Source of the DNA: Amphiscolops sp. MND2022
Lineage: Eukaryota
DNA: 64,000 nt
Assembly (NCBI GenBank): GCA_964187785.1
Contig: OZ076409.1
Span: 53,322,001 to 53,386,000 of the forward strand
Reading direction: 5' to 3'
The translations under genes were made by a program, and so were the position numbers. Under the pieces are notes generated by a model. The model saw only the letters and a list, made by a program, of their open reading frames with translations, had not been told where the DNA came from and did not search any database. This document shows positions 21,074 to 48,600 of the stretch, piece by piece; positions within the stretch are counted from its first letter, which is position 1; each line of letters begins with the position of its first letter.

Positions 21074-21700
21074 CATTTGACAGTTGTAGCATGCAATATT
21101 GTCAATCATGTTGTTGCATTATTTAGGAATTTTATTACATCTGTTGAATTGTTTGATTTGATATACACACTTTTCTTTTTCCAAAAACAGAGCAGATACT
21201 GCTCATTGCCTTCAGTTTTTCTAAGTAGATGTACAGTTATGAAAGAACAGAAAATCTCTCAACATGATTAATACCCTCTCAAGTCGTAAAACGTAAACAA
21301 GTCTTGATTGAGTGAATTGGCAATCTTTTCAAAACATTTGAAATACAATTGAAAAATGAAAATGGACGGATTAATCAGATCCATTAAAAAAATAAAAAAA
21401 ACATCTTGATCGTTCTAAAAAACAGCTCTTGTTGAAAAAACGAATCTAGATGGAAATCAGTGTTATTATTCGAAAGGTCAGCAGAATCCACATTGTGAAA
21501 ACAGCTGATACAATTGCCGGCTCTTTTTTTCCTTTTCCCCCAGCACTTTCAAAGAAAAAAATTCAACATAAAGCATTATATTTGGCTATATTGTTTAATA
21601 TTTCTTCAAATAACACTTTTCCTTTGTTTTGTTGTCTCCACATGAGCTCGCACCAGTAACTGTCAACTACATTTCTAGGTTCTTAATTGTTTCTGGGGTC

Positions 21701-22256
21701 TTTTTAGTCAGCGCTTTTGAAAAAAAGTGCCCGACTCTTACAGTGGGTAGTTTTTTTAAACGCGTAAGGCCCAGTTTTTTGTTCATTCGTTTAACAACTT
21801 GAACTACGGAGGTTTAAAACACTCGAAACCTCAGAACCTTGTCCAAAACGAAAAAAAAACGACGTCCCGACCCTCGAAAACATACTAAGGATAACTCCTT
21901 TGGCGATCTTGGTGTTTTAGTTTTTTTCGGCACTATGAGACTTTTTTGAAAACTTTTGAATTGTGCCAAAGGGTCCACTCTCATTTGTTTCGCTATTTTG
22001 CAACAGAAAGGATGTCAAAAATCCCAAAGGGTCCCCCTTTTACAATATTCGGCACTGTCGCGCTGTTCAAAAATCCCAATTTTGATTTTTTTGTCGATTT
22101 TTTAAAAAGTCTCCAAAGGGTCTCCTGTGATTTTTTTCATGTTGCGACAAACTGGAGTTACAAAAAGCCCAATGAGTAACCCGTTTCACAATTTTAAAAA
22201 CTTTGCGCTTTTTGAGCCTTCGATATGCTTACGACTTTGGCCGTTCCAGGCTTGTT
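21701..22256 (+). mobile_element. HINE/DINE-1-like element
   Basis: TTTTTAGTCAGCGC...GTGCCCGACTCTTACAGTG 5' end and CGACTTTGGCCGTTCCAGGCTTGTT 3' end. Confidence 0.75.
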
Positions 22257-22390
22257 TAAAATTTCTATTGTTGCGCCTAAACCTTCTTTTTCTTTTTCTC
22301 CTAGGTAAAGAGTCATTTCAGTATTACAATGGAAACAATGGCGAGTTTTGAATAGAAGATAACGATCCTAAAGAAATTTGACAATTTCAC

Positions 22391-22890
22391 TTTTAGTAGG
22401 CGCATTTTAGTAGAAAATGAGCCCGACTAATACAGTGGAAAGCTTTTTTTCGTCAGATAACAGAATGTATGCGTAGTGGCAAGCTTCTTTTTCGTCAGAT
22501 AACAGAATGTATGCGTAGTGGACACTTTTTACAGAACTACTAAACTACTGGACCGGCAAGCGGAAACGCATCTAACTTAGTGCAAAGGGCCCCCCTTTCA
22601 TTTATTCCATTTTTAACGTAGGATCCAAAACCGGACGAGATTAAAGGGTCCCCCTTTTGAATTTTTTCGACACTGTGCAACTTGAATTTTTTGCCCCCTT
22701 CGATTTTGTTGAATTTCCCCTTCGCAATATCCGGAGTAAAGTGTTACTTTTGACGTTATATCCGAACTATTTTGCGTTTTAGTAAGGAGGCCGTGGCTCA
22801 GAAGCAGTAGTTTTCTAGGAAAATTCCTACACATATTTTTAACACTGCGCTTTCTGATATATTGCGCCGACATTACGCTAGCATACAATT
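22391..22890 (+). mobile_element. Degenerate HINE/DINE-1-like element with an internal ~43-bp duplication
   Basis: TTTTAGTAGGCGC...GCCCGACT 5' end, AAGGGTCCCCC motifs, GCGCCGAC near 22865. Confidence 0.55.
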
Positions 22891-24289: not shown

Positions 24290-24589
24290 TTCTTTACATG
24301 AAGTTGCTAAGTGGGATGTGTGCTGCTTTTTATAGTTGGTTACTTTTGGTGGTGATGGTATTAACAACTTAGTAAAAAGCGGCTAAGAGACAGGCTAGGT
24401 AGCTAACTTTATTACAACTAGTTCGAGGTGGTAGAAGTAGAACAAAAGGGAAGTCAACCAAATACTGATTATTAGTTTTCTCTCTCTGAGGGAGTACAGA
24501 CTTACAGTCATTCAATAATAAATAAATGTACATTCTAGAACATTCTATAAACATCTAAATACTATTGGGTTTTAATGTAGGTCAGTACA
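24290..24589 (-). repeat. Putative 3' LTR remnant (U3) of the giant Gypsy element
   Basis: Starts TGTACTGACC right after a purine-rich tract and has TATAAAAAG at ~24326-24334 on the - strand. No matching 5' copy found. Confidence 0.45.
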
Positions 24590-25631
24590 TCCATCCCGGT
24601 TTTTAAATGAAACAAAATTTTAAAGTAGCATCATTAATAAAAATGAAGTAAAGAGAAAAAATTTTGTTTAAATGTTCTTAGCGTTTCAGCTAGTTAACAT
24701 TTTTCATTTGATGGATGATTGGCATAGGTCTCTCTAAGAGTGGTGTAAGTTCGACTCATTGGTATACCTCGAATTGTCAAAATTTTGATTGACACCTCGT
24801 AGGTGCGACTACAGTTCAAAAAGCGTCAAAGTGTTCTTTTTCACTATGCTTTCGTCGGCTTGTTTTTTGAACTGGTAGTTGCTCAATTTTTTGCCTCTGT
24901 TGAAGTCGTTGAATGAACTTCGCATTGAACAAACGTGAGCAAACATCATACGAGTTAAAGGTCAAAGAGTCATTGAAAAAATTTTGATGATAAGATTTTT
25001 TCATTGAGTGTGAAAACTGTCTGAAAAGATATCAGGTTGTGATCAACTTTGGCGGGTTTGTCATGTAACAAATGTTGAAAACTTTGAAAATTTGGGTCTG
25101 TCATTATTCGAATCTGATTTGAACAATGTGCTTGATCTATTTTTGAACTTGTTTTGTTGAAATGTTGAAAAGATTTGTGGTTAACATATTGAATTTTGGA
25201 TAGGATAGCACCGAAAAATAATAATTATTAATTATTCTTTAAAAATAAAGCAAATAAATATCGGTAAGGGTGTAAAGTAAATGATTTTGAGGGCAAATAA
25301 ATATGGGTGGGAAAGAATTTTGAAATAAATACATTGCAAGTGTTTTCGGTATGAGTTTGAACCTTTTGAATATTATCATGCACAATGTTTTTTCTTTGAG
25401 TTTCTTTTATTATTGATTATTAATCATCTTCTTCGGCTGAGAACTGGATAGCTGAAGATTGAAGATTGGAAGATGGATGAAGATGGGTCAGCTGTTGGGC
25501 GGCTGTGAAGTTGTGAAGAATGGGTGCTGAGTTGTGACCAGCAATCGTTGTGGATGTTTGGATTGGAAGATGGGTTGTCATCTGAAGAGTGCTGTTGATG
25601 TCATTTGTTGATATCGAAAAGAGACGTAAGT

Positions 25632-26207
25632 TTACGTTTTGTATGGGGAATTATCATCTAGAAATGTTTCTGGAGGGTCCTTTTGACATCCTTCATCTGT
25701 ATCATCGTTATTGTCTGAAGGCCAATAGGAATCTAGGTTTTGTTTTTCCATTTCAGAACGCATTCTGTTAGATAGATTTCGTAATAAATGTTTGGGCTTG
25801 ATGGTAGTATGCTCTGTTTGGGTAGTGGCGTCTCGTTGGGTCGAATATGTATCAGGATGCTTATGAATTTGAAGATATTGGTCAAAGTTTATTCGTGTAA
25901 TTTGGAAGATTTGAAACATATTGAGCAAAATCATTCTTGTAAGATGAGGATCTGCCTTTTGATTTGTTTTGAGCTGTGCATTTAATGTTGTTAAAGGCTT
26001 TTTCAGAATCAGGGATCGCAATCGAGCTGAAGGAATTGAGAGAAGAGGAGCAATTGGGCAGTCGATGTCACTAGAATGGAGTGTCGTCATACTGAAGAAT
26101 ATGATAAAGTTTAATGAAAATTGTAAAGGATTTCGTTGGAATTCTTTTTGGATGGACGGCTTGAGAGGAGGAAGAAATGTTGATGAAGCAGTTGTGACGG
26201 TATTCAC
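25632..26207 (-). pseudogene. Retroelement accessory ORF (191 aa, Pro/Ser/Thr-rich, acidic end), function unknown
   Basis: Same strand and A/C-rich composition as the element. Begins exactly at a CTAAT...TTTTAG|G splice-acceptor-like site. Confidence 0.5.
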
Positions 26208-26612
26208 CTAAAATAGATTAGTTTGTTTACAATAAAGTTCTTTTTAAAATAGAGTTTCATAGTTGACATTTTTTCGATGTAGTTTGTTATGTTATAACTT
26301 TTTAATTTTAAGAATTAAGTTGATGTATTTTGGAAGTCTTTTGAAGGGTATTTAAATATCTTTCGTATAAGTGCTTATTTGTTAAAATCGGTCCGTTTAA
26401 AAGAGGAGCAAATGAGGAATTTTGTTAAAAATTTTTACATCGCGATTGAAATTTTTATATTATTTTGTTTTAAAAGAGTATTTTAATATCAAACAGGTAA
26501 TATAATCATGCAAAGCAGGCATATGCGTGTAGACTCGATTAATTTTGAGAGGTTGTTAAGAGATTAGGTGATAAGTGTTAACAATTTCAAATTATTATCC
26601 CATAATTACCAG

Positions 26613-27904
26613 TTAAGATCGGTGCATTTTTTCAATTGTATAGTTGAATTCGTCCAAAGATGTGCGAATACACAAAGCTGATTGGCTAATTCTTGTCGTA
26701 TCAAATACGATATTTTGTATTATGCTTCGAGCTTGTTCAAGAGTATTTACGATTTCGGCGATTGTTATAAGAATATCTCGGTTCGGATGATGATAAGGTT
26801 TTATGATGTTCAAAATTTCTGTATATTTCTGTATTTCGTCCGTTGGGCGAAAACTTTGTGGTTGAGGAATGTCATTTTTGGTTTTCTTTGGCGATTCTTG
26901 TTTTGTCTTTTTGTGTTCTTTAGTATTTCCATTTGTAAGAAGTGAAAGTAAATGAGAAATAATGAAAATTAATTCATTATTTGAATATCCTTTTTTGGTC
27001 ATTGCGTAAAAATAGGATTTTTCACAGTCTCCCAGAGGTTATATATGAGAGAGGCTATATGTTGAAGTGGAGGAAGAGGATCAGATATATTTTGAGGTAT
27101 ATCTTCCTGTAGTAGCGAATCGTCGTTCAGAATGAGGTACAATGATTGGTCTTTTTGGGTTATCATTTTGAAGGAAAAGAAAACTTTGTTTAAGCGGATC
27201 ATAATTTCTAAGTTTTCCTTTTGTTTTGGTATGATCTATCAAATATTCTGAGTTGAAAGTGAATGGCGACGTATATTTGGAGTTGAAGAATATATAATTA
27301 TCGGGCTCTTTGTATTGAAGAAACTTCTGATAAGTCATGTGATGAGCCTTTTTGATTTGGTATGGCAAAAAATTTGCGTCATTTTCTTCGGTTCGAAGAT
27401 CATATGGAGATGGTCTGAGGAAGTTGTATTGGAGTGAGAAAATTTTCACTTTTTTGTTGAAACCACCAAAATATATGGGGTAATCAATTTTGAAGCGATT
27501 GAAGTATGATAATCATTTTTAAATTCTCTGATGATGAATTTGTATTTTGTTGGAATCATGTATAACGAGGTTAAATGAGATTGAAAGGTAAATTGTTTTG
27601 ATGAGAGAATAGGAACTAATTCACAGTCTCTATCTTCATCTTGTTTAACTGGTTTTATGAAAGGAGGGCAAGCGCCAGATTCCATAAAAGGTTTGTCTGC
27701 AGTTATATCTGGATACTTTCTTTTTTGAGATCTTGCGTTAACATGATCTACTTGTTCAATAGGAATAGTTTCCATGGGATCTTGAGAATTTGAAGATGAA
27801 TTATCATCTTCGTTAACATTTTGTTGAATAGTTATATTCAAAGGGGATGCAAGCAATTCAGAAGGGTTAGAATTAACTACATTAATTTTGGGCAAGGATT
27901 CCAT
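26613..27904 (-). pseudogene. Retroelement accessory ORF, probably one ~430-aa frame broken by frameshifts, function unknown
   Basis: Four consecutive overlapping - strand ORFs (27446-27904, 27081-27449, 26999-27202, 26613-27002), the first starting at an ATG in AATAATGG context. Confidence 0.55.
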
Positions 27905-28401
27905 TATTTAGACTTGCGTGTTTTTGTAGAGCTAAAATAATGATTATAAAGTTTGATTATAATGTTTCTAATAATGAGGAAAAATTATGTTATTTCTTTT
28001 TTGTCCATTAAATTGTTTGTTAAAAATGAAGTTTAAATTGTACTTACACTATGAATATAACTGAGTCAATTGTGGGTTGAAAACATCAACAATCACAGTG
28101 GCATCTATTCCAGGAATAGAAAATTCTGTAATTTCGGTCTTTTAGATGGACTGAAGATCCAGTTGAAGTCTTCCGATTGAGTGTTGAGTTGTGATGGGCA
28201 AGTGAATTTTCAGTTGAGTTGAAAGGAGAGACTTGTCCAAGTGAGAATTTGGGTTTGAATGAAAGTTAAGCTGAGGAAAATTTTGTTGATGATTTTTTGA
28301 ACTTTTTCTGAGGTTAATTTGTTTTTTTTTGGTTATTGCAACTTTTTGTGAGGTTAATTTGTTTATTTGGTTATTGCTTTTTAGCTAAGAGGGATTAAAT
28401 T

Positions 28402-30969
28402 TTATAAAGACTTTAGCAGGACTTTCGGTTTAGCTCTTACATTTGATAATATTGGGTCATAGTCCTGTGAGTTAATATCGTTGACATTAGTTGGGTGTAA
28501 CTTTTGCGGTGATTGAAATGTTGAATTTTTACTGGAATATTTAGAAGGTAAATACGGGGAGTCATTATCAGAGTATCTTCTCAGTTTGTTGTGTAATTCT
28601 TTTTCCGGCAATAGGATATTATCATTTTCACTTGTTGTGATTTTGTGTTTAGTATATATCCGTTTTCGTTTTCCTGTATTGTTCAAATCGGTTATCATTT
28701 CCGATGTAACTATTTTAAAAAATCCATGGGCTATTGAACTCAAAATGGAAATGTTGCTTTGGAGATTATATTGTATGCTAATTGTTCTGTAGAATTTGAG
28801 TAAAAATGTTAAAACTTCTCTAATGAAAAGAAATGTTGAAAAGTAAATTCCACCTTGTGTTAAAACATAACATGGATATCCAAAGAAATTAATGAATGCT
28901 TGACTGAACCAGTCAGGGTTGAAAAGTGGTAAGAGGCTTAACAGTGGTCATGTACTCCAATCCTTAAATGATTATAAGGATTATGTCTTGAGTAGGAATG
29001 TTTATCATTATGCACTGTGATGAAATCATAGCTTAATGATTTTCCAAGTAATTGAAGAGTTTGAAGAGTTGTATCTGAGTTTTTAGCGAATAATACTCTG
29101 TTCCAGAATCGATCTAATTCTGCATTTGAGTTTATACCGGCATCTTGGGTGGTAAATGTATTAGGAGTGATTGTTGTTTTAATTTGGGTAGGTTTAAACA
29201 TTTGTGGTGCTTCTCGTTTGAGTGGTTCTGGTGTTAACACATAAAAATCTCCGTCGTTAGAATCTGGGTCTAATTCGATTATATTTTGTGGGTTATTTCC
29301 ACATTCAATTGGTGTTGCATAGTTAAAAGTTTGTCTTGTTATAGGATCAACATACATTATAGTTTCTCTGTAGTGTATGGGAATTCTATCAAAGCATTTA
29401 TCTGCCTAGTATAGTGGTGATATAAAATGAGGGCAATCATACAGCCATGTTGTAGATCCTTCAACGTAGAGAAAGTTACTGCGATTTCCAGTTAAAAGAA
29501 AACCGGCTATTTGGGGATTCTTAACTGACATAGCTAAGATTGTTAACAATTGAGTTCTTTCCAGTTCACATATTGTATGAAGGGTGTTTAGTTCTTGTAC
29601 TGTCATGGATTTAAATACATGATTTATTGTGAAATCAATTTTTGTATTAATGTGGCATCATAGTCTAAAGTGGCGAAATTGTTTGATACATTCAATGCAG
29701 GGAATATATACCTTTTATTTGAGTCATCATTTTTTATGTTTCCACTAATTGTTTGATCAATTATTGAGTGTGGTTTTGGTTGTCCTGTGTTCATATCAAA
29801 ACCATCTAAGTATGTAACAAAGATGTCATCATATTGTGTTGAGAATAATGGTTCAGGTTTTCCACAAAAGGTTTGTGCAATTGGGTATATTTCAAATCGA
29901 GAAAGGCTTGGATTGCTTACTTTTGATTGTGGTGTTTTCACATTAGGATATCTTGTTCCTTGTATTCCTTCGGTTTGAAGTTTTTGTGTGATGTTTGAAG
30001 TTTCAATGAAGGTATCGGTTTCTATCCAATATCTATCTTTAATTCGTGTCATTCTACCAATGAATTCTTGAAGTTGAAATATGAGGCAAAATTTTTCATC
30101 AAACCATGTTAATGTATATGGAGTTTTTGTTGTTGGTTTACATAATCCGTCTGATTGATAGCACGGTAATACGTGTCCGTCATGTATTAATTGACTGTTT
30201 TTATCATCATAGTCTATTGCGGTGTTAACAATTCTAAGTTTCCAACTTTGTCGGGTAATTAAATGTTCTCGGTCGGCTCGGCATCTGGAGTATGTGTTTT
30301 GTGTAACATTAACTATCCAGTCGGGATAATTTTCATCCAATACGAAAGTTCCAATATGCCATGTGTTTAATTTTTTTGCTCTAAATGGTGTTTGAATTCG
30401 TTCAATTTTGTTTTGATAGTTACTATCGTCGAACAATGAGAAAGAGCTTTGTATATTGTAATTGTTTAGTTCTTCGCTATCAGTCGCGTTGAAGTAACTT
30501 ATCATGTTTTTGCAATCAAAAGGGTCTTATATTTTTGGAAGTTCTAATGTGTTCTGTCCCCATTGTAAACGATCATATCGTCTACTGGATGTGAATGTTT
30601 GTGAACACCAGACCTTTTCAGTCTTTATATATGCTTCGCATTTAAAGGCTTTTATGCTTTTGGCTTTTGCTCTAACGTAAACTGTTGCTTGGGTTTTTGT
30701 GTGTTGTATATCTGAGGGTGCTTGTTTACATGGTTCAACATTTAATGAACTGAATTGTCTTAAGTTGTTTTGTTTTGCACAATCATAATGGGAAACCATT
30801 AAGTTTAAAATGTTGGGGTCTTGGTCTGAAATATGATTTTCTGAATTGGTTGTGTCAACTTTAGGAACAGTTGAAGGGTGAACTAAAGAGTGAACTATGT
30901 GGATATATTTATGTATTTAACAACATATATTATGTATACTAGGTATAGGTTAAAGGTTATATGATCCAT
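28402..30969 (-). pseudogene. env: env-like class III viral fusion glycoprotein (chuvirus G-like), frameshifted
   Basis: ATG at 30969 with a hydrophobic leader. Motifs HYDC..C..A..C..C, CELERTQLLTILAM..NPQIAGFLL..G..FLYVEG...LYDCP and YVDPITR......IEC. Hydrophobic anchor at ~28800-28900 and a basic cytoplasmic tail. Confidence 0.8.
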
Positions 30970-30983
30970 GGTTAAAATATTGG

Positions 30984-32917
30984 TTAAAATATTGTTCTAT
31001 AATTAAGTCCTGAATAGGGATTAAAGAAGTGTTTATGTCCTGTTCTAATCTCAAGTAATTTTGCGTCACAAAGGTAAGAAATGGATGTGACTATGAATGG
31101 TGATGTGGTTGTTTTGTGTGCTACTCTTGTTGAAAGAGAGAATGGATGAGGTCCTAACGAGTTGAATGTGACTTCTACTTCAAATTTTAATGCGAGTTGT
31201 TGTTCTTGTAATCTTCGTAATTCTCTTTGTTTTCTTTGAGTTGATAGTGAACTATTGTTTATAAATCTTGCAGGTAAAACCGTGTATCGAGGATCTTCGT
31301 TAAGCGTACGAACAATTTTTGAATTAACACGGATGGGATATTCGTGAGGGTTTGGTGTTGGAGGTCTTGAGAAATCTTCTAAAAAATATTCAGGTAATTG
31401 TATAGAAGAGTTTGATGCTATTGAACTAGGTGAGTAAACTCGTGAAAAATTAGCTGCGCTATCTGATATAGTTACTGGGTCTTCAGAAAGAAGAGAAGCT
31501 GTTTCAAATCCTGATGTGATTTGAAATGGTAGTGATAAAGAAGATGGTATAGTGGGTTGAGATGAGGAAAGAGAAGAAGTGTCTACTCTGGGTTGGGCGT
31601 GCTGTCTAAGTAGTCTTGAGTTTGTACTTGAACTAGTTAAATATTGTAATTCTAGAAATTTTCTTTGTTGTTGAGATCGAAGGTTATAATTATGTCTTGG
31701 TACTCTAGTACTGGCAGTTGAGTCAGAATCTTTATCTTTGTGATATAAATCTGTTAAAGAAGAGGTAGTAGTTGAATGTACACGTTCTAATTCAAGTTTG
31801 GGATATATTTGAGAAAATGTGAATGAACTTAGTTCAGATGGTGAAGGAATTGGGTGTTGTTGTAATTTCTTCACTGGTGCCTTCAATGAAGGTTCGGGTA
31901 AGAATGGTATTGGAGTATAACTTGCTGATGGTAAGTTAAGGTCTTGTGGTAATGTAGGTAAAGGAGTTTTTCTTTTTGTTTTAGTTGCAGTTGGTACTTT
32001 ATGTGGACAAGAATTTATGTGTTGCAGAACTGAGCTGGGGTCAGGGATTTGAACGGAACGAGTGGTAGTAATTGGTGGAAGATGAGGTCTATTTAAAATA
32101 TTTGAAGTATCTTGTGTAGTTGGTGTTGTAAGTGTTTCATCATTAGAGTCAGTACTGGTGAACTTGTTTCTGAAAATACTAAATTTTGTGAAGTAGGTTG
32201 TGATTGAGATGTTATTACTAGTGTTTGAGTTTGGGTTATAGGTGTATTGGTGGGTGTTGCTGGTACTCTATCAGGAGTGTATGGAGCGGATGGACTGGGG
32301 TTTGAGGATGAGGAATCCAGTATGTCTGTATCTGAGTTTAAATATGCTGTATATTCAGGTAAAATTTGGAGTGAGTGTGTTGAACTAGAAGATGAACTAT
32401 TTGTGGTTGATGATGGTGAATGAATATGTCTATCAATTTTGAAATCTTTTGTGTTATGGTAGTTTGCTTCAAATTGTAAGTTAGTTAGTTTTATATCAAC
32501 TAGAGTTTCTTTCTTTTTTTATCACTTGTGAAATATTTTTTCATTCAATTTCACATTAAGTTTCAAACTTTCTTTCTTTCTTTCAAATTGTCTTTCTTTC
32601 TTTATTTCAGCAGGATTTTTGAGAAAGCGAAATTATATCCTTTGCACCAAGGAAAAGTCGAAAGTCTTTTATTGTTCTTGGGCGGAAATTGTATCTATTA
32701 AAGGAGTGTCTTCGGGGGTTAATAAATTTATCATAGTCATGAATGTCTGATTGGTTATCTGATTTGGTATTTTGAGAATCTTGTTCCCTTTGTTGGTACG
32801 GAAATGAAGAATATTGGTTAAATGATTCTGGTTGTAAATCAATCGTGAATGGTATATCCGTTTCTTTATTAGATGTTGTGGAAGGAAATTGTTCTTCGTC
32901 TGTAAATATGCCTTCAT
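30984..32917 (-). pseudogene. Ser/Thr/Pro-rich low-complexity region downstream of integrase
   Basis: 300-aa ORF 30984-31886 containing PRHNYNLRSQ and S/P-rich runs, with similar composition continuing to ~32900. Confidence 0.55.
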
Positions 32918-32949
32918 CAGAGTTAATTATTTGATCGTTTATATTTGAA

Positions 32950-35900
32950 TGACAGTCATTAAATAAATGAGGGTTATATTGTTGTAGAAAAGGGAAGATA
33001 ACTGGTTCTTTTAGATGATAAGGAATTAAATGATTTCTATGTATGTGCGATGTATAACCATCTTGATTAACAATTTCATGTTATGTCGGAGATTTTGTTA
33101 ATAATTTTGAATGGGCCAATTCTAAGAGGTTTTAATTTATCGGAAAAATGAACATGGAGAAAATTTCTCTTTAGTACAAATGTACCAATATCTAAGGGTC
33201 TTGGATTGTGGTATGTTTTGTTAAAATAAGCATAAGAATTAATCTTTCTTTTTGTGTTTTCATATACCGTATGGTATATCTGTATCATAGCAGTTTCAGT
33301 AGCTAAGATCCATTGTGGAATTGGTTTAGATAAAATTTTATGAAAGAAAGGGTTTAGATTTGATTTGTCATAGTGTGTATGAAGTGGAAATTCTTGACAA
33401 AATTGAGAAGTACAATTTCTATATGTATCTCTTTGGAGATTGAGTTCAAAGTTGATTGGAATTCTGGGTATAGTATGGAATACTATTTCATATGGAAATA
33501 AGTTTAATTCAGAGAGTAGTTGTGAATTATGTGCATAAGCATACATATGAACTTGAGTTGACCAATTTTCTGGAGTGTTATGTAAGAAAAGTCTGAGATG
33601 AGTTCCAAGATTTCTGTTTTGATTTTCAACTAAACCATTAGTCCATGGTGCATAAGGAGTTCTTGGTTAATGTCTAATTCCCATTGTGGTACAAAGGTAT
33701 GCGAATTTGGAATTAATGTAATCTGTTCCACGGTCGGTAACTAGGTATACAGGAGGTCCAAATTTTGTTATCCAACGATGAAGTAAGGAGTTAACAGCGT
33801 TCTGAGCAATATTTTGTTTTTGAGGTACTGTTACTACAAAGTGACTAAAAGCGTCTACTATAACATGAATGTATGAGTTTTGATTTGATGGTGGGTTTAT
33901 AGGTCCTTTTGTATCCCTCGATATTCGGTAGTTGAAATATGAAGCATTTTCTGAAAATGTTTGTATGGATGCAGTTTGTATTTTTTGGTTAATATGTTTA
34001 TTTTGTTGACATTCAATACAATCATGGATGAATATTGACATCCATTTATTCAAATATGGTATGAAGTAAAATTGGTTAAAAGCTTTGATGGACATTTTTA
34101 TTCCTGAGTGTCCGTGAGCATGAAGTTTGTTACAAGCTGCATGGAAGAGTTCAAATGGTAAACATATTTTGTCTTTTTGATTCGGATTTGAATCGTGAAG
34201 ATTAGGATAATCTATGTGAATAATTTTTGTATCATGGTTAATATACAATTGGTTGAAAATTTTGTAATATACTAATAAGAAAGAATTTCCTGCAATTGTT
34301 GCGTCTATTTGTAAGGGTCTTTCATTATTAAGTACCCATTGGTAAACTTTTTGTAAAACAGTGTCTTGTTGTTGTTGAGTTTTTATTGTTTCAATTGTTG
34401 TTTGTGTATCTTCTGGTAGGAACAACTAATTAAAGTATCTTTTGTATTTGAAGAAAGATGGATCAAAAATTGGAACTTGTTGATTACAATAATCGGATTT
34501 GGTAAGATATTGTATAGCAAGTGTGTGTTCTTTTAATGTGTCTGCGTTTTGATGTTGGATATTATTTGATTGAGTTAGTTCATCGTCATCACTGAGAATG
34601 TCAGTATCATTGGGAATTTTCGATTGTTGTAAGAGAGATTTTGTTTGGTTTTTTGTAGGTTTTTTATATTTTGATTCAAATGGAACGATAGATTGAAAAG
34701 AGAAAGAATCTAAAGGTTTTATGTGAATATCTTCTCCTTTGTTATTTATACGGATAGAAAATTGGTCGTCTCCGTAGTCAGCAAGAATAGGATGACAATC
34801 ATTCTTTTGATTATAATTGATTTCTTCATGTTTTACTAAATATTGTACTGGTTTGAGTTGATTATATTTCATGATAGAGAAATCTATTTGAGGTGGTAAT
34901 TGTTTGTGTCGTAATTGATGTACTTGTAATTGTTCTTTTGTAAAAGTTCGTGAAAGCATCTCTGCTACAGTTAAGTTTTTTCCAGGGGTATGAATGATTT
35001 TCAGTTTGGAGAAGTTGGTTAATTGCATTTGTGCTCTATAGAATCTAGGACTAAGATTTCCTTTCTTTGCAAAATAATGTAGTAGAGGTTTGTGATCTGT
35101 AAATATGTATATGGGATAAGGAGATCCAATGATCAAAAATTCATATATTTGTAATGCGTAAACTATTGCGAGAAGTTCTCTGTCTAAAGTTTAAAGTTTT
35201 TGTTCTTGTGTGTTAAGAATTCTGGAGTTATAAAAAATTACTTTCATTTTATTTTCTTCGTTCATTTGGAATAAGACTGCGCCTAAACCAACTAACGAAG
35301 CGTCTACTGTTATGAAAAATGGATGCGTTGTATTGGGTATGGTTAATTCAGTGCCTGCTGTCATTGCATTTTTTACATTTTGAAATATTTTTTCTAATTC
35401 AGGTGTCCATTCGAATTTAACATCATTATGTAGTAATGTATACAATGGTTCAAGGTTTATATGAAGTTTTTCAATGAATTTTGAATAGAAGTTAACACTG
35501 CCAAGAAATTGCATAACATCTTTCTTTTCTTTTGGTGATGGAATTCTTTTAATGGCGTCACTTTTGGATGGAATTGGTTTGATTGTGTTATTACTAATTT
35601 CGTGTCCAAGGAATTTTACTTTGAGTAACATGTAGAAAGATTTTTCGGGTGCGAGTTTGAGGTTTTTTCGAGATGCTATTTTATGTAATTCTTTTATAGG
35701 TTCAAACATTTCTTGTTTTTCATTTGAGAGTAGTAAAATATCATCTATATACACTAACGCAGAACGTTTGTCTATAAGTGACCTAAAGAAAGTTGACATT
35801 TGTTTTGTGAAAAAGTTTGGAAGTCCCTTTAATCCGTAAAATCCACGGATTAAGGCGTATAGTTTGTCACCGGATGAAAATCCTGTAAGCTTGATTGTTT

Positions 35901-37400
35901 CTTCATCTAATGGTGTATGAGCAAAGGCATACATTAAATCAATGGTTGATTTATATTTTTTTTGGCTCTAGCTAATTGAGGAGCTAAAAATTCAATAGGC
36001 CAAGATTCAAGTTCTTGGTTGGTGTTTGAGTTTAAATGTCTTGCGTCTAAGACAACTTTTATTGCGTCTCCTTTGGGGATAATAATTAAAGGGTTTAAAA
36101 ATGTTGTTCCAATTGTGTGTTTTTCATCTGAGGTGGAACCAGTTTGTTTTATTATATTGTATTTTTCAAGTTCTAGTAAAAGTTTATTTAGTCCATCTCT
36201 GTAGTGAATTGGTACTTTAGAAGGTCTTTGCGTTTGAAGTTTACATTTATCTTTTATTCTAATTCGAAAGGGAGTAGAAATTTTTCCTACGTCGTTCTTA
36301 TGTTTGGCGTAACAATTTCGATTATCAATCAAAATATTGCAGAGGTTTACATATTCTGTATCGGTTAGATCTGAGTATTCAAAGTTAAGCTTTTTTATGA
36401 ATTGTTGGTTTTCTGTAGAATATGGTAAAGGAGGAAAATCTTTTTGAATTTTATCGGAGGGTCGAAGATTTCCAGTAACAGAAGGTATAGGAAGTTTAAG
36501 TGTTTTGTCGTTGATTTCTATTTTGTTAATTTCTAATAGGGATTGTGGTGTTACCCTAGTACATAAGTTCATATCTGCATATGGATTTTGTTTAATTGGA
36601 GTTGTGGTATCAGGATGATACGCATGTATTACAGAGTGAATAAGTGAATTTACATCATTAACTCTACAGTGAGGAGGAGTTGTTTGAGTAATAGGGATTT
36701 CTATGTATCCAATGATTCCTCGTGGTAATGTAGCTGGGTAAGATGTAAAGTTTTGAATTATGGTTGCACAAGAGTCTTTGCTTTTTTCATTGACTATCAT
36801 ATCCAAGAAATGAAAGATATCTTTAAATTTTTGTAAGAAATATGTTTATGGGTTTGTTGGATAAATTTTTGTAATATCTTCAAGTTCAAAATGTAGATTT
36901 GAATAGTTTTTAATTGGGAAATGTAGGGTTTTTCCTGACCTGGGTTTAAAGTGAATTGGTTCTTTACATTTACTAGTATAAATGTAAGAAATATATGGGT
37001 AATCTTTTTCTGTAAATGTGGAAAATGTTGTTTTTGTTGAAAGATTTGGATGTTGTTCTATGTAAGCCATAATATTTTGTTGAAAATCAATATTTTGGAT
37101 GTGTTTTTTGAAAAAGGGTGTCCCACGAATGTTGTATTTGATATTGGCTACGGCGAAATCGATATTGAAGGATCGCGTTTGATGGTTTACTTCAGTAAAA
37201 CAGGTTATCGAAATATAGTGTATTATTGGTACTTCAGTTTGGTTTGCAACTGTAAGAGTTTTGGCTCTTTTGTTTTCAAGATTGTTTGGAACATTGATGT
37301 TTAATTGTTTGGAAATCACATGAAATGTTGGTAAATTCAAAACAGGTATGGATGCTCCAGTATCTAAGAGGAAAAAGAGTTTCTAATTTTGAAGGTAATA
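32950..37400 (-). pseudogene. pol: pol: protease, reverse transcriptase, RNase H, integrase
   Basis: LDTGAS (~37356-37367), GLKGLP and YIDD (~35740-35751), DAS..GLGAVL and TDHKPL, H..GH.G...C..CQ zinc finger, DTKGP / DAFS / TDRG catalytic core, and GPF motif. Confidence 0.95.
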
Positions 37401-37559
37401 TGTTATCATTTGTTTCAGAAGCATGAACATATAGTGGATAAAATCAACTATAAGGAGTAATTGTATTAGCGATTTCAGTTATTTGACAGGTGTGGATTTC
37501 AAATTTTGTACTATCATTGTCTTTTGTAGATTTAACGTCTACTTGATTTATTCTGTTTT

Positions 37560-40500
37560 GTTGTCGATTTCGTGAGGGTGTTCTAGATCGTGATCTTAAA
37601 TCTCTAGGTCTTGAAGGAGATCTATATGGATAATTATATCGTTTAAAGGAGTTTCCTTGTGATTGAGAACGAGATCTGTATCTTGAGCGGGAGTTATATC
37701 TGTAATTTGAGTTATTTCTGTATGGAGATCTATATAGAGATCTAGATGGAGTTCTTCGTTGATAATAATTATCAAATCGAGATCTATATGGACTTCGAGA
37801 TCGATTGTATTATCTTTGTCGAGAATTTGATCTATTGTTGTTTTGCGAATTTTCTCTACTATTGCTACGATGTCTATCATTATTTCTGTATCTATCGTTA
37901 TAGTAATTTTGATTATATTTGTTACGATTGTTATCTGAGGAGTAAATATTGGTATTGTCATTTCGAGTTTCTTGTGAGTTATCAGGTTTACTGCGAAAAT
38001 ATTGTACAAAAGATTGTTGAGGAGTTCGTGATCTTTGGTTCTTGTATTTTTGGTATTCATCATCACGTTGTTTTTGATAACAGTTTGAAATACTATGATT
38101 ATTTTTGTGACAATAGGAACAATATTTTTTAAGCTGGTTTGCTTTTGTTATTTGGGTCTCCAGATTGAGTAACCATTATATGATCTTCGTGTTCAAATTC
38201 TGTTTTGTTTGTATCATCTTCAAGCGATACTTTGTTTATTTCTATAGCTAAGTCGTTAGTTCTAATTTTTTCATTAGCAATTTCTTCAGAATCGACATGT
38301 CTAGCAAGTGTGTGAAATGGTATAGAAGGTTCACGTAATGTCGATACATGTTTAACTTGTCGTTTATGAGCAAAATTTTTTAGTTTTTTGGGTAATCCTT
38401 TTGTAAAGATTTCAATATTTTTGAGGTTTATGGTAGCTGCATTTTCATTGCACAATCCCTTTTTAACTAATTGTTGTACTCTAAGGGCGAAATGGAGTAC
38501 TGTTTCATGATCTTTTTTCATGAGTGACATAGCTTCTACTTGGGCGTAGTAAGCTGTTTTTTGAGAAGCAAATTGTTTTTTGAATAATTGTACGAAGGAG
38601 TTCCATCGTTGTTTATATGATATATGAAGGTTAGTATACCAATCGAGAGCTGTTCCAGTTAAAGAACATTGTATGTAAGCCATGCGTCTATTATGCCAGG
38701 ATTTGTATTTTATAGGATTATTCTAAGGTTCTTCACCTATGGCGAAGGTTAATCTAGCTTCGACTTGTTGTAGATATTCTTCTGGTGTATAAGAATGGTC
38801 TAAACTATCAAAAGGTTTCATAGGTTCTGATATTGAAGCGGACATGTTCATAAAAGTATCTTGTGGCATTGGTAAGTATTGGAGTGGAGGAGCTACTTGT
38901 TGTGTGAGTTGAGGAGGTATATGTTGAGTTGTATTTTGTGGTAATGGATTTGGATTTGGATTAGGATTTGGATTAGGATTTGGATACATTTGATACAAAG
39001 GATCAGTAGGTATATGTGTAAGTGGAGGGTTTTGAAGTCTTCTTTGAGAAGATTGTATGGTATGAGAACAAGAAGTTGAAGGATACGAAGTTCCTTGATT
39101 TTGAGAATATATATTACTCTGTGAAGTACTGGTTTGTGATAATTGTATGAAAGGGTTTTGTGTTAATGAATTCGTAATAAATTGAGAGTGATTTTGGTTG
39201 ATATTTGCATTAGTATTTGTATTTGATGGAGGATAAAAGTTATAATTGAATGGATCGTAATATTGATTGGAAATTTGTGGATTATCATTACAATTATTGT
39301 TTGAAGAAATTGATCTATCTGAGCGGAAAGCAGAAGGAATTGATGGAGGATCAAATCTAGGTCGAATAATGTATCTTGTAGAATCAGGAATAGTTCTTGT
39401 TGGAGATGCAACGTTAACAGAAGTCTTCTGAACATGAGATGTGGTTAGAGTATCTTCATGTAAGGTGTTATGAGTTTCGTCGTGTGTTATTTCATCCGTG
39501 TATGGAAGGTTGAATGTTATTTTGCGGTTTAGAGATGTATCTAAGTGAGATTGAGGATTATGTGTATTTTGTCTTTGATTTACAACTCTAGTTGGAACTC
39601 TAAAAGATTGAGTGTGTGTTGATGTTGATGTTCCGGCTTGTGATGCATTATGTGTTGAAATTGTAGATTCTTGAGTAGTAAACTCATTTGCATTGTTTTC
39701 AATGATCTGATTATCATCATTATAGTTTTCATTTTCATTTTGTTGTAGGAGTGTATTTTCATCATTGGTATTATCATCTTCAGTATAGTTATTAGTGTTA
39801 AAATTTGAGTTTTGTTGAACTTGAGAATTTTGTTCATAGTGATAAGGTCTATTGTCTGCAAATAGATCATTTTCTGTAATTAATAGAGGATCGGAACGTA
39901 TGTAATCTAAAGTTTGTTTTGTAATTAGTTGTTGTTTGTGGAAATAAGGATGTTCATTTTGTTCACTTATGATGAATGGTAAACATTCGTCAGCTGTAAA
40001 ATGATTTGGAAATGCTGTAAAAGCAGGCTGATCTTGTTGTGACCATAATAGTTGATAATTGAATCCGAAGTATTTTCTGAGGAATAGAGATAATACTTTG
40101 ATCTGAGGAATTGTTTGTTCATTTAATGTTAAGTCTTTGAAATAATGGTAGAGGAAATTTTGTATTCGTAATATATCAGTTTGTAACCAATGATGAGGAT
40201 TGTCTTCAGGATTAACTAATCTTTCAATAAATTCTACTTCGAAATTGTTTATATATCGTTCAAGTTCGTCGAGTGCATTTGGACTAAATTTTGGAGTTTC
40301 AAGTGCTAGGTTGTGCTCTTTCACATTGTTCAAAAAAGCGTGAAAAACTTGTTTAATAGGAACGTGGAGGTTTATTGGATTTGATGTTCTTCTGTATATA
40401 TGAGATGAGTTAGGTCTTTGTTGAGGAAAGGAGATTTGAAAAGCTGGGTATTCTGTAGTGATGGTTAGAAATTGTATCTAATATAGAAGAGGTATGTGTC

Positions 40501-40679
40501 CAAATGTTCTCTAATAAGAGGTATTGTTTCAATTGTATGAGGTTCATTTTCAAATGGGAGTAGTTGTGTATAATGAGAAATAATGTTTTGTAGGAATGGA
40601 TTAGTTCTAATTTTACAACTTTTGCATTTTTAATGACGGGAGTTTGAAAATGTAAAAGGGTTGTTGTTGAGGAGTTCAT
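37560..40679 (-). pseudogene. gag: gag with long N/Q/T-rich N-terminal region, capsid domain, CCHC knuckle and RS-rich tail
   Basis: YIQCSLTGTALDWY...WNSFVQLFKKQF...ETVLHFALRV capsid-like motifs. After a frameshift at ~38129 the frame reads CSYCHKNNHSISNC, then RSRSPYRSR...RSRSRTPSR. Confidence 0.85.
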
Positions 40680-43600
40680 TTTTAGATATTATCTTTTATC
40701 ACTGTAAGCTTTTTTTCAAAGAGAATACTAAATAGAAATAACACACAAAACGTGTATGTTGTAATGAGCACTACTGTGGTAACTTTTTTTATCACATGTT
40801 ATAATATGAAGGTTAAAATGTTGAAAGTAATTTTTTATATAGATCCTATTAAGTTGGAGCTCTTGGGTAATGCCTTTGTTGATTTATGATGAAGAAAAAA
40901 AATTGTTGATATCGTTCAATTAATCTTTCAAAATCGTCTGATGTAGGGTTTTGAAGTGAGCTAATTAGAGGAATGTAAAAATTTAAAGAGTGAACTGTTT
41001 GGTTGTATATGTTAGAGTTCATATTAATTGTGTTCTAACAAGAATTTGAAGTTATTTGGGATGTTAATAGTTTTGGATAGAGAAGAAAGAAGCGGATGCA
41101 ATAGGATCTGTATTCAACCTCAAAGGTTTGCTAACAGAAACTAAGTGTGATTTTAAGTCTGGATCACTTTAAAGTGTCTAACATAAGGTTACTGACACGT
41201 CCAGAAAAGCTAAGGTTGTTTTAATTTTAAGTGGGTTGTGTGTTTTAGGACTATGGGAGTGGAGCTCTGAACAATTAACGTCCACTTTCCAAAGTCTGAT
41301 CAATACTGATCAAGATCAAAGTTTGATCTTTGTCTCTTTTACTTTTACTTTTACTTCCTAAGAATTTTGAAGATTCGAACGTAGTTCGGTGTCCTCTCGA
41401 TTCTCCTTAAGGACGTTTACACTTAACTAAGGTTTTTAGTCAGCCTTAGAATCAGATTGAGCTGGTGAAGCTGTCTGATTGTCTAAGTCTTATGGGAGGG
41501 GATAGGAATTGTGGGTGCCTGAAAGTAGAAAACTACTTTTACAGTGTCTGTGTTAGTTACATGCCTTACTTTAGTTTCATGTTTTAGACGTAAAAGAACG
41601 GATGATTGTTTTTTTACAGATTCAGTTAGAAAAAAATGGAAAACAGTCGTAGTTATCACAGACTCACACATTTTGATTGTTGGTCACTTTGAAAGTGTAT
41701 CCGAGTCAAAAATCGTACCAATACAATATGTAAAAAATTCAACTTCCGTCTAGGTGTGCAAAGTGGAAATTGGTCAAAGTGTGTAATTTTATAAAGTGTA
41801 AGTTAGTCACTAGCAGCTTTTTAATCACCATGCGTAACGCCAAATGACATGGTGTAACGAGAAAACATGTAACGTTTTAATTTAATTCCTACAGCCTTTC
41901 TATTGGCTTGCTTCCTGGCAAGATACGATAAAGACCGGAAAATTGTCAGCAATTATTTTCAACCCAATTTTTTTGCGAAATAGACGTTTGTTCGAAAATA
42001 TTTTTTCAAAATTCATCTTGAAAAGAAACAAGTTAAACAATGGTTTGATGCCAAAATCCACGCTAACAGGCTATTTCGTGAAAGTCATCATTTTAAGGAA
42101 AAAACGAACAATGACGAAAGCTAAAGTAGGACCATTCAAGTTGGAAAATGGTTTTTCCTAACTGAAAGAAGTCATAAAATCAAGAACACTTTTGAGAAAG
42201 AAATGTTTGTCAGAAAAGTTGCTTACAGTTTCAATTACCAAACAGGTGACCTTTTATGCTCTGAAACAATTTTCTCTTATCTGAAACTAATAAACAACCC
42301 TCTAGTTAGGTCAGACATTATATCTTCGATTACATCTTTCCCTCAAAAACGGAAACATTTTCTTACAAAGTGATTGGAGGAAGCTGCAAAATTGGTTCAT
42401 CGTCCGAGACGAGCGCCCATCGCCACAGGTTCAATTTGCCTCCAGTGCAAAGTACGGTTGCAATACGTCTCGTGGGGTCGTGAGGAGGTACGGTACCACA
42501 CCAGTGGATTACTTACCAAACGGTCTTAGTTTGTGACTGCCTGCTATGAGTAACAGGAATCTTTCGGACACTCTAAGGATCACCGCTCAAATAGCTTCGA
42601 TCAACAGGGTCAAGGATAATGAAAATTTTCAATTCCAGGGTGAAAGTTAGCATAAGTTATTAATGCCAAAAGTAGCCCTCAAGCTAGAAAATACAGCAAT
42701 AAACAGTGATAATCCGTACATTCAGATGTTGAAACGGCAGACTACACAACTACAAGCTATAGCTCTAAGTACCAAACAAAAATATTCAGGCAAAAAGACT
42801 CATTCTGTGGTTTTCGGTACTACAGGTAACATTTTGTTAGAATACATCAAACCCGTAGGTTTAGCACCTGTAAACCGAGTCTCTTAGAGTTTCTATCAGT
42901 TCTCAGCTCCTGTTGGGATCTCTCGGTCTCTCGCTCTCACTTGGTCTGTTTTCGGCTTCATTATACATGCAAAATGGTGATGCAAAACAAACCCAATGCC
43001 ACGTCAAACGTCGGATTAGAACACAAATTCCTGCCACAATTTCAATTACATCATTGACTGTATATTAGAGGGTAACGTTACACCTGCGGCAACCACTATG
43101 CCGTGTAGAAACTACTTCCGTTTAGACAACAAAGAAATCTGAGAGCAATCTGTTTCAAGCAAACTCACTGGCTTCCAATACGAACCTGTCCTGAAATGAT
43201 GATAAATGAACAACTGCGTCATTATAATTATAGAAGCAAAGTTCGTTGAATTAGTTGCAGAAACGATAAAATCTTCAACCAAATGAATTCGAAAAAAATC
43301 CTGTTTAACAAGTAATGGAAATAGCGTCGCAATTAGGAAATTCAAAAAATCTTCCAGAGCAATTTGTAATCGTTCAAATTTTCAGGTGACAACTCTCAAC
43401 TTTGCCGTGATTTTTGTTGGTTTTAGAAAATTAGTACGGAAACGTCACGATTCCTGAACAGTTGGTCCTCGAATCTATGGTTTCAAACTGACTGGTCCGA
43501 AACAAAAGGTCATCAAAATAACAAATCATGTTCTGTGTTTTTGGCTATAATTTACAATGTGACTTTCTCCAGCAAGCTTTAGTTTTTGTTTTCTATTTTA

Positions 43601-45689: not shown

Positions 45690-48600
45690 ATGCGGTCCAC
45701 TTCAAGAGCAGGCTTGAAACATTTCACATTCTGTATTTTCCTATTTTTATCAAGTTTCGTCGTAATGTGTCATGCTCAGTACTTCAATGACGGCCAATCG
45801 ACTTCATCTTCGGAAGCTACCAAACAACCAAAGAAACGAGTCAAGAGCAATGAAGTCAGTGCTCTACTCAATTTCCTCATTTCGGACAAAGAAGACGAAT
45901 TTGGAGCTATCCGGTTAGCGCTTCTAATTTTTATTTGAAGTAAGTTTCATATCACCTTTAGCTATCCTTAGTTTCGAGGTTTTTTGACCCATATGATCAA
46001 TATAACACTAATAAGTACCTAGAGCTTTTTTGGATAAAGCTATCATAAGTTAAATATCACCTTATTTTTAGTCAGACTCTTTTTGTGAGAAAGAAATTTT
46101 CAATATTTACAGAGAAAAGTTTTTTGTTAGACCGACGACCTCACACTGAATGATCCAATTTTCGATAGTTGCCTAAGACCTAAAGTGCTTTCAGAGGTTC
46201 TGAATGGTGCACTTTTGATTGTTTTACAATTTCAAGTAAATTGCCAAACCTAATGAGACCAAAGGTGTTTTTCTGAGAATTTTCCTAAAAACCATCTCTG
46301 AGCATTATGTTTTTTTGAGCTTTATGAGAGACTTCGTTGATTTGAGGTTTTATGAGGGGTACAGACTTAAGACGTACCTGTCTTCTAGCCGAAGTCAACA
46401 TTTATCTGAATTATGAAATAAAATGTTTCTGACGAGAATTGTTTTCTTGATTCTGACTACTCCTATATATCCCAACATTGAAGCTACATTTTCTGTCATG
46501 TGACGTCTTGCCAGACCTTTCAAACAATGTGCGAACCCAAAGAAAACAAAACATTGGATTGACGAAATCGCTGCAATTCGTTTTTGTACTTAAAAATGAC
46601 ACAACTGATTATATTTAAAACATTTTCTATTATTCAAAATATCTGAAACATGCATTTCGGTCAACTCGTTTTTGCACAATTTTAGACGGTGCTTTTCTTA
46701 AGAAAAGAGTCGACTATAGTCATGGCTTTTCGTCAGTGTTTTCTTTCCGATATACCTGAACTGTCCAAAATAGTTCTTCAAAAGTTCAATTTAAGCAATG
46801 TTCCTTTCGGCAATCTACATTCTACATTTGAGCAGTAAAAAGTGCTAAGGAGTCCCCTTCGACAATAACACAAACTGGATTTATTGCAAAACGGATAAAG
46901 CGAATTCCGGATATAACGTTTACCGGATATAACTTTCTTTGGAAAAGATTTCCATGTTACAAAAGGGTCCCCCTATGGATTTTTTTGGCGCAAAAGGATT
47001 TAACGCAAACCGGATATAAGGAATTCCGGATATAACGTATACCGAAAAAAGGATTCCTTGCAGAATATTCCAATGCTGTAAAAAGTGTCAAGCAAAAAGA
47101 TTCTCCTATAACATTATCGCGTTCTTAAATTCCGAAAAAAAAACGTTTTCAAAGTTCGGATGTAACGTTTTCAAGGCTCCGATATAACAATTTTTTTCTT
47201 CGTATAACGTTATCCATTTTCCCCAAACTTTCACATAATTTGCGTCCATTGTAAAGCTTTAGAGTCAGGTTTTCCATACTATAACCATGTCCCCCGATTC
47301 AGTCCTGTGCCTTGTTTTGGCTTTGGCTTTGTGACACTTTTTTTTCGAAAATTTTTTGATGTCTGTAAAGAGTCCACCCTTCAATTTTTTGATATTTGGG
47401 AACTGTGGAAGAGAATACTTGACACTTTGAAGTCCTTTTGCTATTTTTAGTCGGCGCGTTTTCATTTTAAGGAAAAATGCCCGACTATAGCAGTGACCTT
47501 TTTTTTAGTCGGCGCCTTTTCCCTTAAGGAAAAAAGCCCGACTCTTACAGTGAGTAGTTTTTTTTTTCAGTTGACAATCTCACTCTGAGTGGTCCACTTT
47601 TCTTACAATCTTTGTTCACATTTGTTCACATTTGTTGAACTAATTTTCTGAAAAGCAGGAGATCGTGGGTTCGATTCTCGCACTAAACCACAAATTTTTT
47701 ATGTTTCCAAAAGTAGATGCGAGACCAAAGCTTTGTTTCGTTTCGTTTGATTTTTTTTCGTTTTTTTTCGGCACTATGCGACTTTTTTTTCGAAAATTTT
47801 CGGATTCTATCAATTGCATTTTTTTTGAAGTTTTCGGTTTGTAAAAAGGTTCAATGAGCCTGAATGGCCTCTTTTGAGTTTTTGTGGCATTGTCCGATTT
47901 TCTAAAAAAAATACTTTTTTCGAAAAAAAAATTCAAAAATAATTTTTTCGAAAAAAAAAATTTCCAAAAATTTCCAATAGCTGTTCCTTGAATATTTTTG
48001 AGCCTAAGATATGGCGCCGACTTGGGACGTTCCCGTCTTGTTTTTTCTTCAGACTACAATCCTCACACTGATCGGTCCACTTTTTACAATTCTGCGCAGA
48101 GCACCTGAGGCCAAGTCCGCCCAAGGCAAACGTACTCCAAAGGGTCCCCCCTATCATTTTTTACTTTTTCAAGGAAAATACAAAACCGGACGTGCCCAAA
48201 GGGTCCCCCCTTTGGATTTTTTTCGGTACTGTGCGACTTTTTTTTCGAAAATTTTTTTATGTCCCCAAAGGGTCCCCCCTTTGAGTTTTTTGATATTTTG
48301 CAACGGAATGTTTGTTAATAAATCCAGAAGGCCCCCCCTTTTACATTTTTCGGCACTATGCGACTGCTTTTGAAAGAAAAATTTTTTTCAAAAAAAGTGT
48401 TTTACGCTTTTTGAGCCTTAGATATGGCGCCGACTTTGGACGTTCTCGTCTTGTTGATTTGGCGCCGACTTCCCGGCTTGTTTCTGCAGTTATTACTAAC
48501 AAGACGGTAACAAAATGTTCATGTATCCTAAAATTTCGAAAAATCTTACATTGAATGAGATTTCTAAAGGGGTGACCTGGACAGTTAGTGAACCGAGAAG

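Follow-up and report, generated by a model that had tools for sequence, protein, structure and literature searches.

Class III envelope (env) genes, which encode gB- or chuvirus-like fusogens, are widespread in animal Ty3/gypsy elements and are as common there as F-type env, according to the covered sections of a recent survey (Chary and Hayashi 2026, PMC13524379). The gB-type "ancient errantiviruses" of that survey combine a Ty3/gypsy pol and the order GAG-POL-ENV with a class III env that lacks a canonical furin site, and they exist as many near-identical copies. An element with these features lies on the minus strand of a 64,000-nucleotide stretch of DNA from Amphiscolops sp. MND2022 (contig OZ076409.1, positions 53,322,001 to 53,386,000), hereafter the window. 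Its family likewise has a post-pol env with class III homology and multiple near-identical intact copies. We consider it probable that the window holds the remains of an 18-kb Ty3/gypsy element that exists in many copies and was active recently. This copy is decayed and has lost its 5' end; the element has a class III env together with three further genes under selection, and it likely functions as an enveloped element that resembles complex retroviruses and passes from cell to cell.

Three open reading frames (ORFs) are described in the survey, as far as its covered sections go, whereas the window element has a gene between pol and env and two more after env. The survey's prefilter admitted regions up to 10 kb with a pol-env gap of at most 1 kb, with a wider manual look for some phyla. 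The family of the window element is beyond these limits: it is ~18 kb long, with TG-ended long terminal repeats (LTRs) of 237-415 bp and a pol-to-env interval of 1.3-2.1 kb that holds the extra gene, ORF2. The strings "accessory" and "splic" are absent from the survey's main text, acoel taxon names have no match in the parts of its text and supplements covered, and six env motifs have no match in its sequence supplement, a weak test because cells there are truncated at 400 characters.

Other described elements share some of this organization. Tor3b and Tor4b of Oikopleura (PMC4402516) are likewise env-bearing gypsy elements, and Tor4b also has space between pol and env. However, no ORF is described ahead of env in the passages covered, the Tor Env is furin-cleaved, unlike that of the window family, and Tor4b groups with F-type elements (PMC13524379). 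The planarian element Burro, in the sections of PMC6431247 covered, is likewise a giant gypsy element with thousands of copies, a fusion-protein gene and accessory coding, but it exceeds 30 kb, has long LTRs, and carries env in frame between gag and pol. LTR elements of bdelloid rotifers also have extra ORFs after pol and form an invertebrate gypsy lineage; they differ, in the passages of PMC5408684 covered, in having one ORF3 each, of F-type env, esterase or exonuclease kind. Mosquito elements with a chuvirus glycoprotein, as cited in PMC13524379, share the fusogen superfamily, but are BEL/Pao and not Ty3/gypsy.

Foamy and complex retroviruses likewise have accessory ORFs after env and ahead of the 3' LTR, a YxLR motif, late-domain-like motifs and an Arg-rich Gag segment. 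They differ from the window family, which has a class III env, a single gag-pol frame, and a reverse transcriptase (RT) that scores higher against the Ty3 entry in PDB (118 bits) than against a caulimovirus-type polyprotein (89), a foamy virus (67) or a gammaretrovirus (50). The virus labels of these entries are in part what we take them to be. The combination of retroviral RT and class I SU/TM env that marks Retroviridae was not found. The element is a member of the Ty3/gypsy group with gB-type env, not of Retroviridae, and its layout is like that of a complex enveloped retrovirus; its selected accessory genes are a functional likeness to complex Retroviridae, not a sign of membership. The fusogen type and the large size have precedents, but apparently neither the ORF2-env cassette nor the two genes that follow it, nor the lineage itself, has been described. 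No description of this five-gene layout or of a CUG-started gene before env was found in the literature searched, whose scope excluded subscription papers and Repbase entries and included some papers in part.

The element family in the host genome

Copy searches were run against the host genome (1.07 Gb), which contains the window. First-look candidates numbered 6,501 for env, 6,904-7,077 for ORF4 and 4,412-5,024 for the conserved ORF2 domain; these are not copy numbers, and 132-150 candidates were scored per search. Young relatives are 17.7-18.8 kb long, with short LTRs that are up to 100% identical and with 4-bp target duplications. Their full plan is a single gag-pol frame of ~2,650 codons, followed by ORF2, env, ORF4 and ORF5.

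Three families share this plan. Family A was sampled as six copies picked for an open env frame. It is 18.3 kb long, with 237-bp LTRs (99.6-100% identical in the four of six pairs measured) and 4-bp target duplications, and contains a gag-pol of 2,653 codons, a 490-codon Met-less frame, an env of 856 residues, and ORFs of 435 and 158 residues. Family B (17.7-17.9 kb; LTR pairs 99.0-100% identical, 6/6) is 78% identical to family A in RT, 63% in env, 38% in ORF2 and 43% in ORF4. The corresponding values for family C (about 18-18.8 kb; LTR pairs 96.9-100%, 4/6 measured) are 72%, 54%, 36% and 34%. Families B and C were found via ORF4, and all 12 copies fetched have the same gene order. Unbroken copies with LTR pairs up to 100% identical, of the kind that an original prediction made from the window alone had proposed to look for, are thus present, and the family is not a fossil. 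The subfamily of the window copy is older: seven LTR pairs are 93-99% identical, and nine of nine copies are broken. One 29-kb copy is enlarged by internal tandem duplications of 1-6 kb with identity above 99%.

Linkage was examined in family A by reading 10 kb downstream of 18 of 150 integrase matches (about every eighth row). ORF2 and the start of env follow in 18 of 18 copies, and the whole order up to the LTR in 15; the other three comprise two deletions that fuse env to the LTR and one internal duplication.

Pairwise ratios of nonsynonymous to synonymous substitution rates (dN/dS) between natural copies (15 pairs) are 0.05-0.13 for pol, 0.17-0.32 for the N-terminal part of Gag, 0.07-0.16 for env, 0.06-0.16 for ORF4, 0-0.14 for the ORF2 C-terminal domain, and 0.07-0.30 for the ORF2 N-terminal part. 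For ORF5 they are 0.12-0.16 in family A, 0.04-0.07 in B (with saturated dS and one unalignable pair) and 0.28-0.35 in C. Every ORF is under purifying selection, and the element carries its extra ORFs as real genes. The "several accessory genes" of the original prediction are therefore borne out as three extra ORFs linked to gag-pol.

Over 12 nucleotides in family B, 11 in C and 9 in A, the primer site agrees with the 3' end of the host's tRNA-Leu(UAA), and a pattern search for it gave three matches versus none for the control. A tRNA-Val variant fits the site as well. Genes for tRNA-Leu(UAA), with a 270-bp period, and for tRNA-Val occur in tandem arrays in the host genome; two of ten copies in the tRNA-Leu(UAA) array are exact to the family-B primer site, and the others have one mismatch.

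The copy in the window

The window copy is a 5'-truncated Ty3/gypsy element that runs from 41577 to 24319 on the minus strand and retains only its 3' LTR. Its features, in 5' to 3' order of the element, are the following.

41637..41874, minus strand: unrelated dispersed repeat of ~240 bp, outside the element, with 39 other places at 74-78% identity
40680..41577, minus strand: remaining 5' leader, with the element cut off at 41577, from subfamily alignment
37383..40679, minus strand: extended gag, with a ~600-residue N-terminal part, capsid (38776-38228), one CCHC knuckle (38121) and an Arg/Ser-rich segment
32610..37382, minus strand: pol, with protease (DTG at 37367), a ~250-residue insert, RT (YIDD at 35751), RNase H, integrase (HHCC at 34122) and a C-terminal YNFR (32693)
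30987..32320, minus strand: ORF2, a Met-less S/T/P-rich protein with a likely CUG start at 32320, from homology, selection and context
within ORF2, minus strand: motifs PSAP (32293), YPxL (31808) and YNLR (31688), and the conserved C-terminal domain (31403-30987)
28391..30969, minus strand: env, class III (gB/chuvirus-like) fusogen, broken in the window, from Pfam PF24664 and conserved cysteines
26616..27904, minus strand: ORF4, 435 codons in family A, soluble, of no known family, with three frameshifts in the window copy
25617..26090, minus strand: ORF5, 158 codons in family A, of no known family, with one in-frame stop in the window copy
24590..24604, minus strand: polypurine tract, at the same position in sister copies
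24319..24589, minus strand: 3' LTR, 271 bp, TGT...ACA, with 93-97% identity to other LTRs of its subfamily

All coding remnants are on the minus strand, and Pfam matches together with ORF reading agree with the predicted order of gag, protease (PR), RT, RNase H (RH), integrase (IN), S/P-rich ORF, env and further ORFs. Matches were to Retrotrans_gag (38132-38722), RVT_1 and RNase H (34429-35967), Integrase_H2C2 and rve (33670-34425), and, on three env pieces, Monjiviricetes_fusion (PF24664; best E 7e-10). The Ty3/gypsy hallmarks found are the pol order PR-RT-RH-IN, a gypsy-type capsid and the CCHC knuckle; relatives add TG-ended LTRs, target duplication, primer-binding site and polypurine tract, of which the window copy has only the 3' LTR and polypurine tract. 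The GC skew is +0.17 to +0.48 across 25 to 42 kb and ~0 elsewhere in the window, because the sense strand of the element is very G-poor (8-11% G in this copy and three relatives).

The limits first proposed, 24290..41846, were revised on the basis of the LTR end and a break in subfamily alignment. At the outer LTR end, 40 of 40 scored matches stop at 24319 or within ~10 bases of it, and the alignment to nine copies of the same subfamily (92-97% identity) breaks at 41577 in all nine. A 5' LTR, a primer site and ~1 kb of leader were not found in the window or in the next 40 kb. The sequence TGGCG at 41846, which resembles a primer-binding site, was rejected as the 5' boundary since it is inside the unrelated repeat. 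Compared with one unbroken natural copy, the window copy has 14 frame-shifting indel clusters and nine in-frame stops, and it is indeed dead, as predicted.

In unbroken copies, gag shares its frame with pol. The Arg/Ser/Tyr-rich Gag segment past the zinc knuckle (37444-38175, minus strand) contains an overlapping open frame of 200-246 codons in all three families, which is perhaps due to codon repetition alone. A conserved insert of ~250 residues separates protease from RT (about 36130-37050, minus strand). By eye we take it to be dUTPase-like, and database searches returned no match for it.

ORF2 and a predicted CUG start

The original prediction noted an S/P-rich region between pol and env. 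Such a region is present, but it is a gene in its own right, under selection and with a probable CUG start, which had been overlooked. All six ORF2 copies counted lack an in-frame Met, and homology between families A, B and C starts at A-x-x-CTG-GAT, with positions -2 and -1 free. This motif is found in the window, in six of six young family-A copies, in eight of nine copies of the window subfamily, in six of six copies each of families B and C, in all 18 copies anchored on integrase, 17 of which have A at -3, and in 12 of 18 further loci. In three gag-pols, CTG accounts for 5 of 688 Leu codons, none of them in the A-x-x-CTG-GAT context. From the CTG to the env ATG, ATGs in any frame number 1, 3, 2, 0, 1 and 0, versus codon-shuffle means of 6.1-8.3 (P 0 to 0.044); pol or env stretches of the same length have 12-31. 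Where the leftover ATGs were followed, in three copies, their frames are 1-17 codons long.

A run depleted of AUG after a weak non-AUG start is the pattern of leaky scanning. Depletion ahead of env would be expected if one mRNA yields both ORF2 and env in this manner. We have good confidence in the prediction that ORF2 begins at the conserved CUG and that env is translated from the same sub-genomic mRNA: some ribosomes would initiate at the weak CUG and make ORF2, while others would scan past it through the AUG-poor stretch to env. Because we found no splice donor or acceptor common to the three families, we guess that this RNA would arise from an internal promoter rather than by splicing, as in Oikopleura, where the covered passages of PMC4402516 place the promoter for Tor env RNA in or after pol.

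The predicted protein has ~300 disordered-looking residues, no hydrophobic segment, and a conserved domain in its last 140 residues. Related domains form 285 clusters at 50% identity, and 20 of 20 cluster records looked up are unnamed ENA records. A model of the domain (predicted local distance difference test score, pLDDT, 80) has two helices and five long strands. It has no Foldseek match at E 0.001 (best VIA Z 3.2, root-mean-square deviation 4.0 over 61 residues), and the domain has no sequence match in Atlas or PDB. As a candidate captured mononegavirus matrix protein, it has no structural match among those listed.

YPxL and YNLR occupy aligned columns in all three families, and PSAP is present in family A and one B subfamily. 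[quoted passage not shown] We tentatively propose that ORF2 could be a budding adaptor that recruits ESCRT via YPxL and PSAP and supplies a matrix-like function, and these short motifs, YNLR included, are to be treated as leads only.

Several observations weigh against parts of this interpretation. The CTG motif is missing from 6 of the 18 further loci, mostly decayed ones. Ahead of the CTG, family A has a further 53 open codons in the ORF2 frame, with dN/dS of 0.15-0.39 across ~48 codons, and therefore an upstream start or splice is possible there. PSAP is absent from family C and one B subfamily, and among 13 long representative ORF2-like proteins YPxL is kept in six and a YNLR-like motif in six. 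The YxLR chromatin motif points instead to a nuclear role. Finally, deletions removed ORF2 or most of env in one B and two A copies, and these genes are therefore dispensable in cis.

Alternative explanations

ORF2 of the same element might be a nuclear regulator instead of a budding factor, such as a chromatin-tethered trans-activator, an RNA exporter or a silencing antagonist (compare foamy Tas/Bet and Cer1 CERV). This proposal, too, is tentative. The YNLR kept in three families matches the nucleosome anchor of foamy Gag, formed by Y537, L539 and R540 in the portions of PMC9040877 and PMC6042332 covered, and the long disordered S/T/P region without a hydrophobic segment also fits. However, YPxL is conserved to the same degree, the AUG-poor stretch couples ORF2 translation to env, and pol already ends in a YxLR motif of its own in families A and C and in related pols.

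It is unlikely, in our estimation, that the family copies itself only inside cells, with env and the extra ORFs serving particle-free cell-to-cell passage or kept from a recent infectious past. The very high copy number does fit intragenomic spread, but env has a dN/dS equal to pol's even when subfamilies at dS 0.7-0.9 are compared, which is not expected of a relic. From this selection on env only, we infer infectivity. Passage of particles from soma to germ line is plausible, though we stop short of calling it probable.

Less credible is a splicing scheme in which ORF2 is a coding exon joined to an AUG exon further upstream, with env, ORF4 and ORF5 on separate spliced mRNAs as in complex retroviruses. 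Canonical-looking acceptors (TTTTAG, TTCCAG) precede ORF4 and ORF5 in families A and B, and the open frame upstream of the CTG in A is compatible with such an exon. Nonetheless, no donor or acceptor is common to the three families, family C has no AG within 140-170 nucleotides before the CTG, and splicing leaves unexplained both the loss of out-of-frame ATGs and the rare Leu codon in a Kozak context.

Although chuvirus-like glycoprotein pieces are frequent in animal genomes (10.1101/2022.06.22.497255, as far as covered), the notion that env and the ORFs after it inserted separately, or were captured as endogenous viral pieces, which the original prediction had named as its own possible undoing, retains practically no credibility, since their order and spacing are constant between one LTR pair in three families and linkage is stable, with 15 of 18 copies complete.

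The most far-reaching version of the CUG-started, enveloped element would be an undescribed lineage of still-infectious invertebrate complex retroviruses that evolved apart from Retroviridae. It would have a class III fusogen co-translated, through CUG initiation and leaky scanning, with an ESCRT-recruiting, matrix-like protein of new fold, as well as two regulatory proteins, and would occupy thousands of host loci. All of this together we regard as unlikely.

Outside insects, gypsy elements with env have been known almost exclusively as sequences of three genes, and the lineage here reaches the gene content of complex retroviruses. A CUG-started ORF ahead of env is a concrete, testable answer to how envelope synthesis and a partner protein might be coupled in a gypsy element. 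More such elements may be hidden, since a Met-less ORF escapes gene finders and a 10-kb prefilter tends to drop them. Since young copies are present at many loci, the natural host would allow tests of expression, translation and particle formation.

The envelope gene

PF24664 matches the natural unbroken env above cut-off in all three families, with E 3e-25 (A), 8e-23 (B) and 2e-27 (C). The insect-errantivirus type, with a baculovirus F-type env and furin site, was considered and rejected because of this class III match and because no furin-type R-x-K/R-R site was found in env. The predicted "different fusogen" is indeed not baculovirus F; it is not new, since class III env is already known in Ty3/gypsy (PMC13524379, in the sections covered). 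In a hydropathy scan, the N-terminus exceeds threshold in families B and C, and the stretch 704-722 does so only in family A; in the three-family alignment the N-terminal and C-terminal stretches are hydrophobic by eye. No PDB sequence match to env was found. The tails of env in one copy each of A, B and C are long, S/P/T-rich and cytoplasmic; each has a PPxY, at positions without clear alignment.

ORF4 and ORF5

ORF4 is 34-43% identical between families, and has no Pfam family, no Atlas match and no significant PDB match. Its single-sequence fold has pLDDT 33. The most conserved segment (family-A copy positions 9040-9280) resembles, by eye, an SH3/Tudor-type barrel. ORF5 is the most divergent gene: the family-B counterpart is weakly similar to that of A, and the C counterpart is without match. 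Because of their position and absence of membrane segments, our guess is that both are most likely soluble regulators that may serve to export RNA, to trans-activate or to counter silencing.

Reach of the lineage

Three ORF2-domain proteins have no close match in the host genome (best 41-46% identity), and therefore other hosts probably carry the lineage. One record has the ORF2 domain fused with a piece of RT-RNase H. Envs with 24-27% identity occur on ten metagenome contigs, and the contigs that are long enough have pol, an ORF-X of 234-262 residues, env and an ORF-Y, with RT 44-45% identical. ORF-X begins with AUG, and the region up to env is ATG-poor in six of six tested (1-4 versus 8.3-10.2). 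In the same six, a second AUG, out of frame and five nucleotides upstream, overlaps the start of ORF-X and opens a frame of 1-2 codons. No homology was detectable between ORF2 or ORF4 and ORF-X or ORF-Y (hhalign under 1%); a segment of ORF-Y in three of these relatives looks like the ORF4 core, yet is unalignable. No relatives were found in viral contigs, and for ORF4 none in metagenome contigs. A more distant env, 23% identical, has a 290-residue N-terminal extension ahead of its first hydrophobic segment.

In quick RT trees (FastTree), a single long-branch clade with support 1.0 unites the metagenome RTs with those of families A-C and of two unnamed ENA groups, and it is separate from the named gypsy RTs. 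The named RTs from databases, none more than 37% identical, are outside this clade. The "distinct lineage" of the original prediction is thereby upheld as a long-branch Ty3/gypsy clade, with database RTs and no curated GyDB or Repbase references in the trees. The pols of the two ENA-only groups were not found in the host genome at the strict cut-off of E 1e-60.

Other features of the window

The plus strand has, at 59290-60659, two exons of a Cys-loop ligand-gated ion channel (PF02931) of the host, which mark it as an animal. A fragment of a second LTR element (51192-52537, minus strand) has gag (PF03732) and a protease-like piece. Dispersed repeats at 10350-15470, 21700-22670 and 46870-48460 contain GGGGGACCCTTT motifs in both orientations, and probably represent a non-autonomous DNA transposon. 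A tandem repeat at 3590-4400 has a 171-bp unit in 4.7 copies with 97% matches, and relatives of it are at 1228-1546. Near-perfect loopless hairpins at 58495-58682 and 58071-58207 have arms of 94 and 68 nucleotides, respectively.

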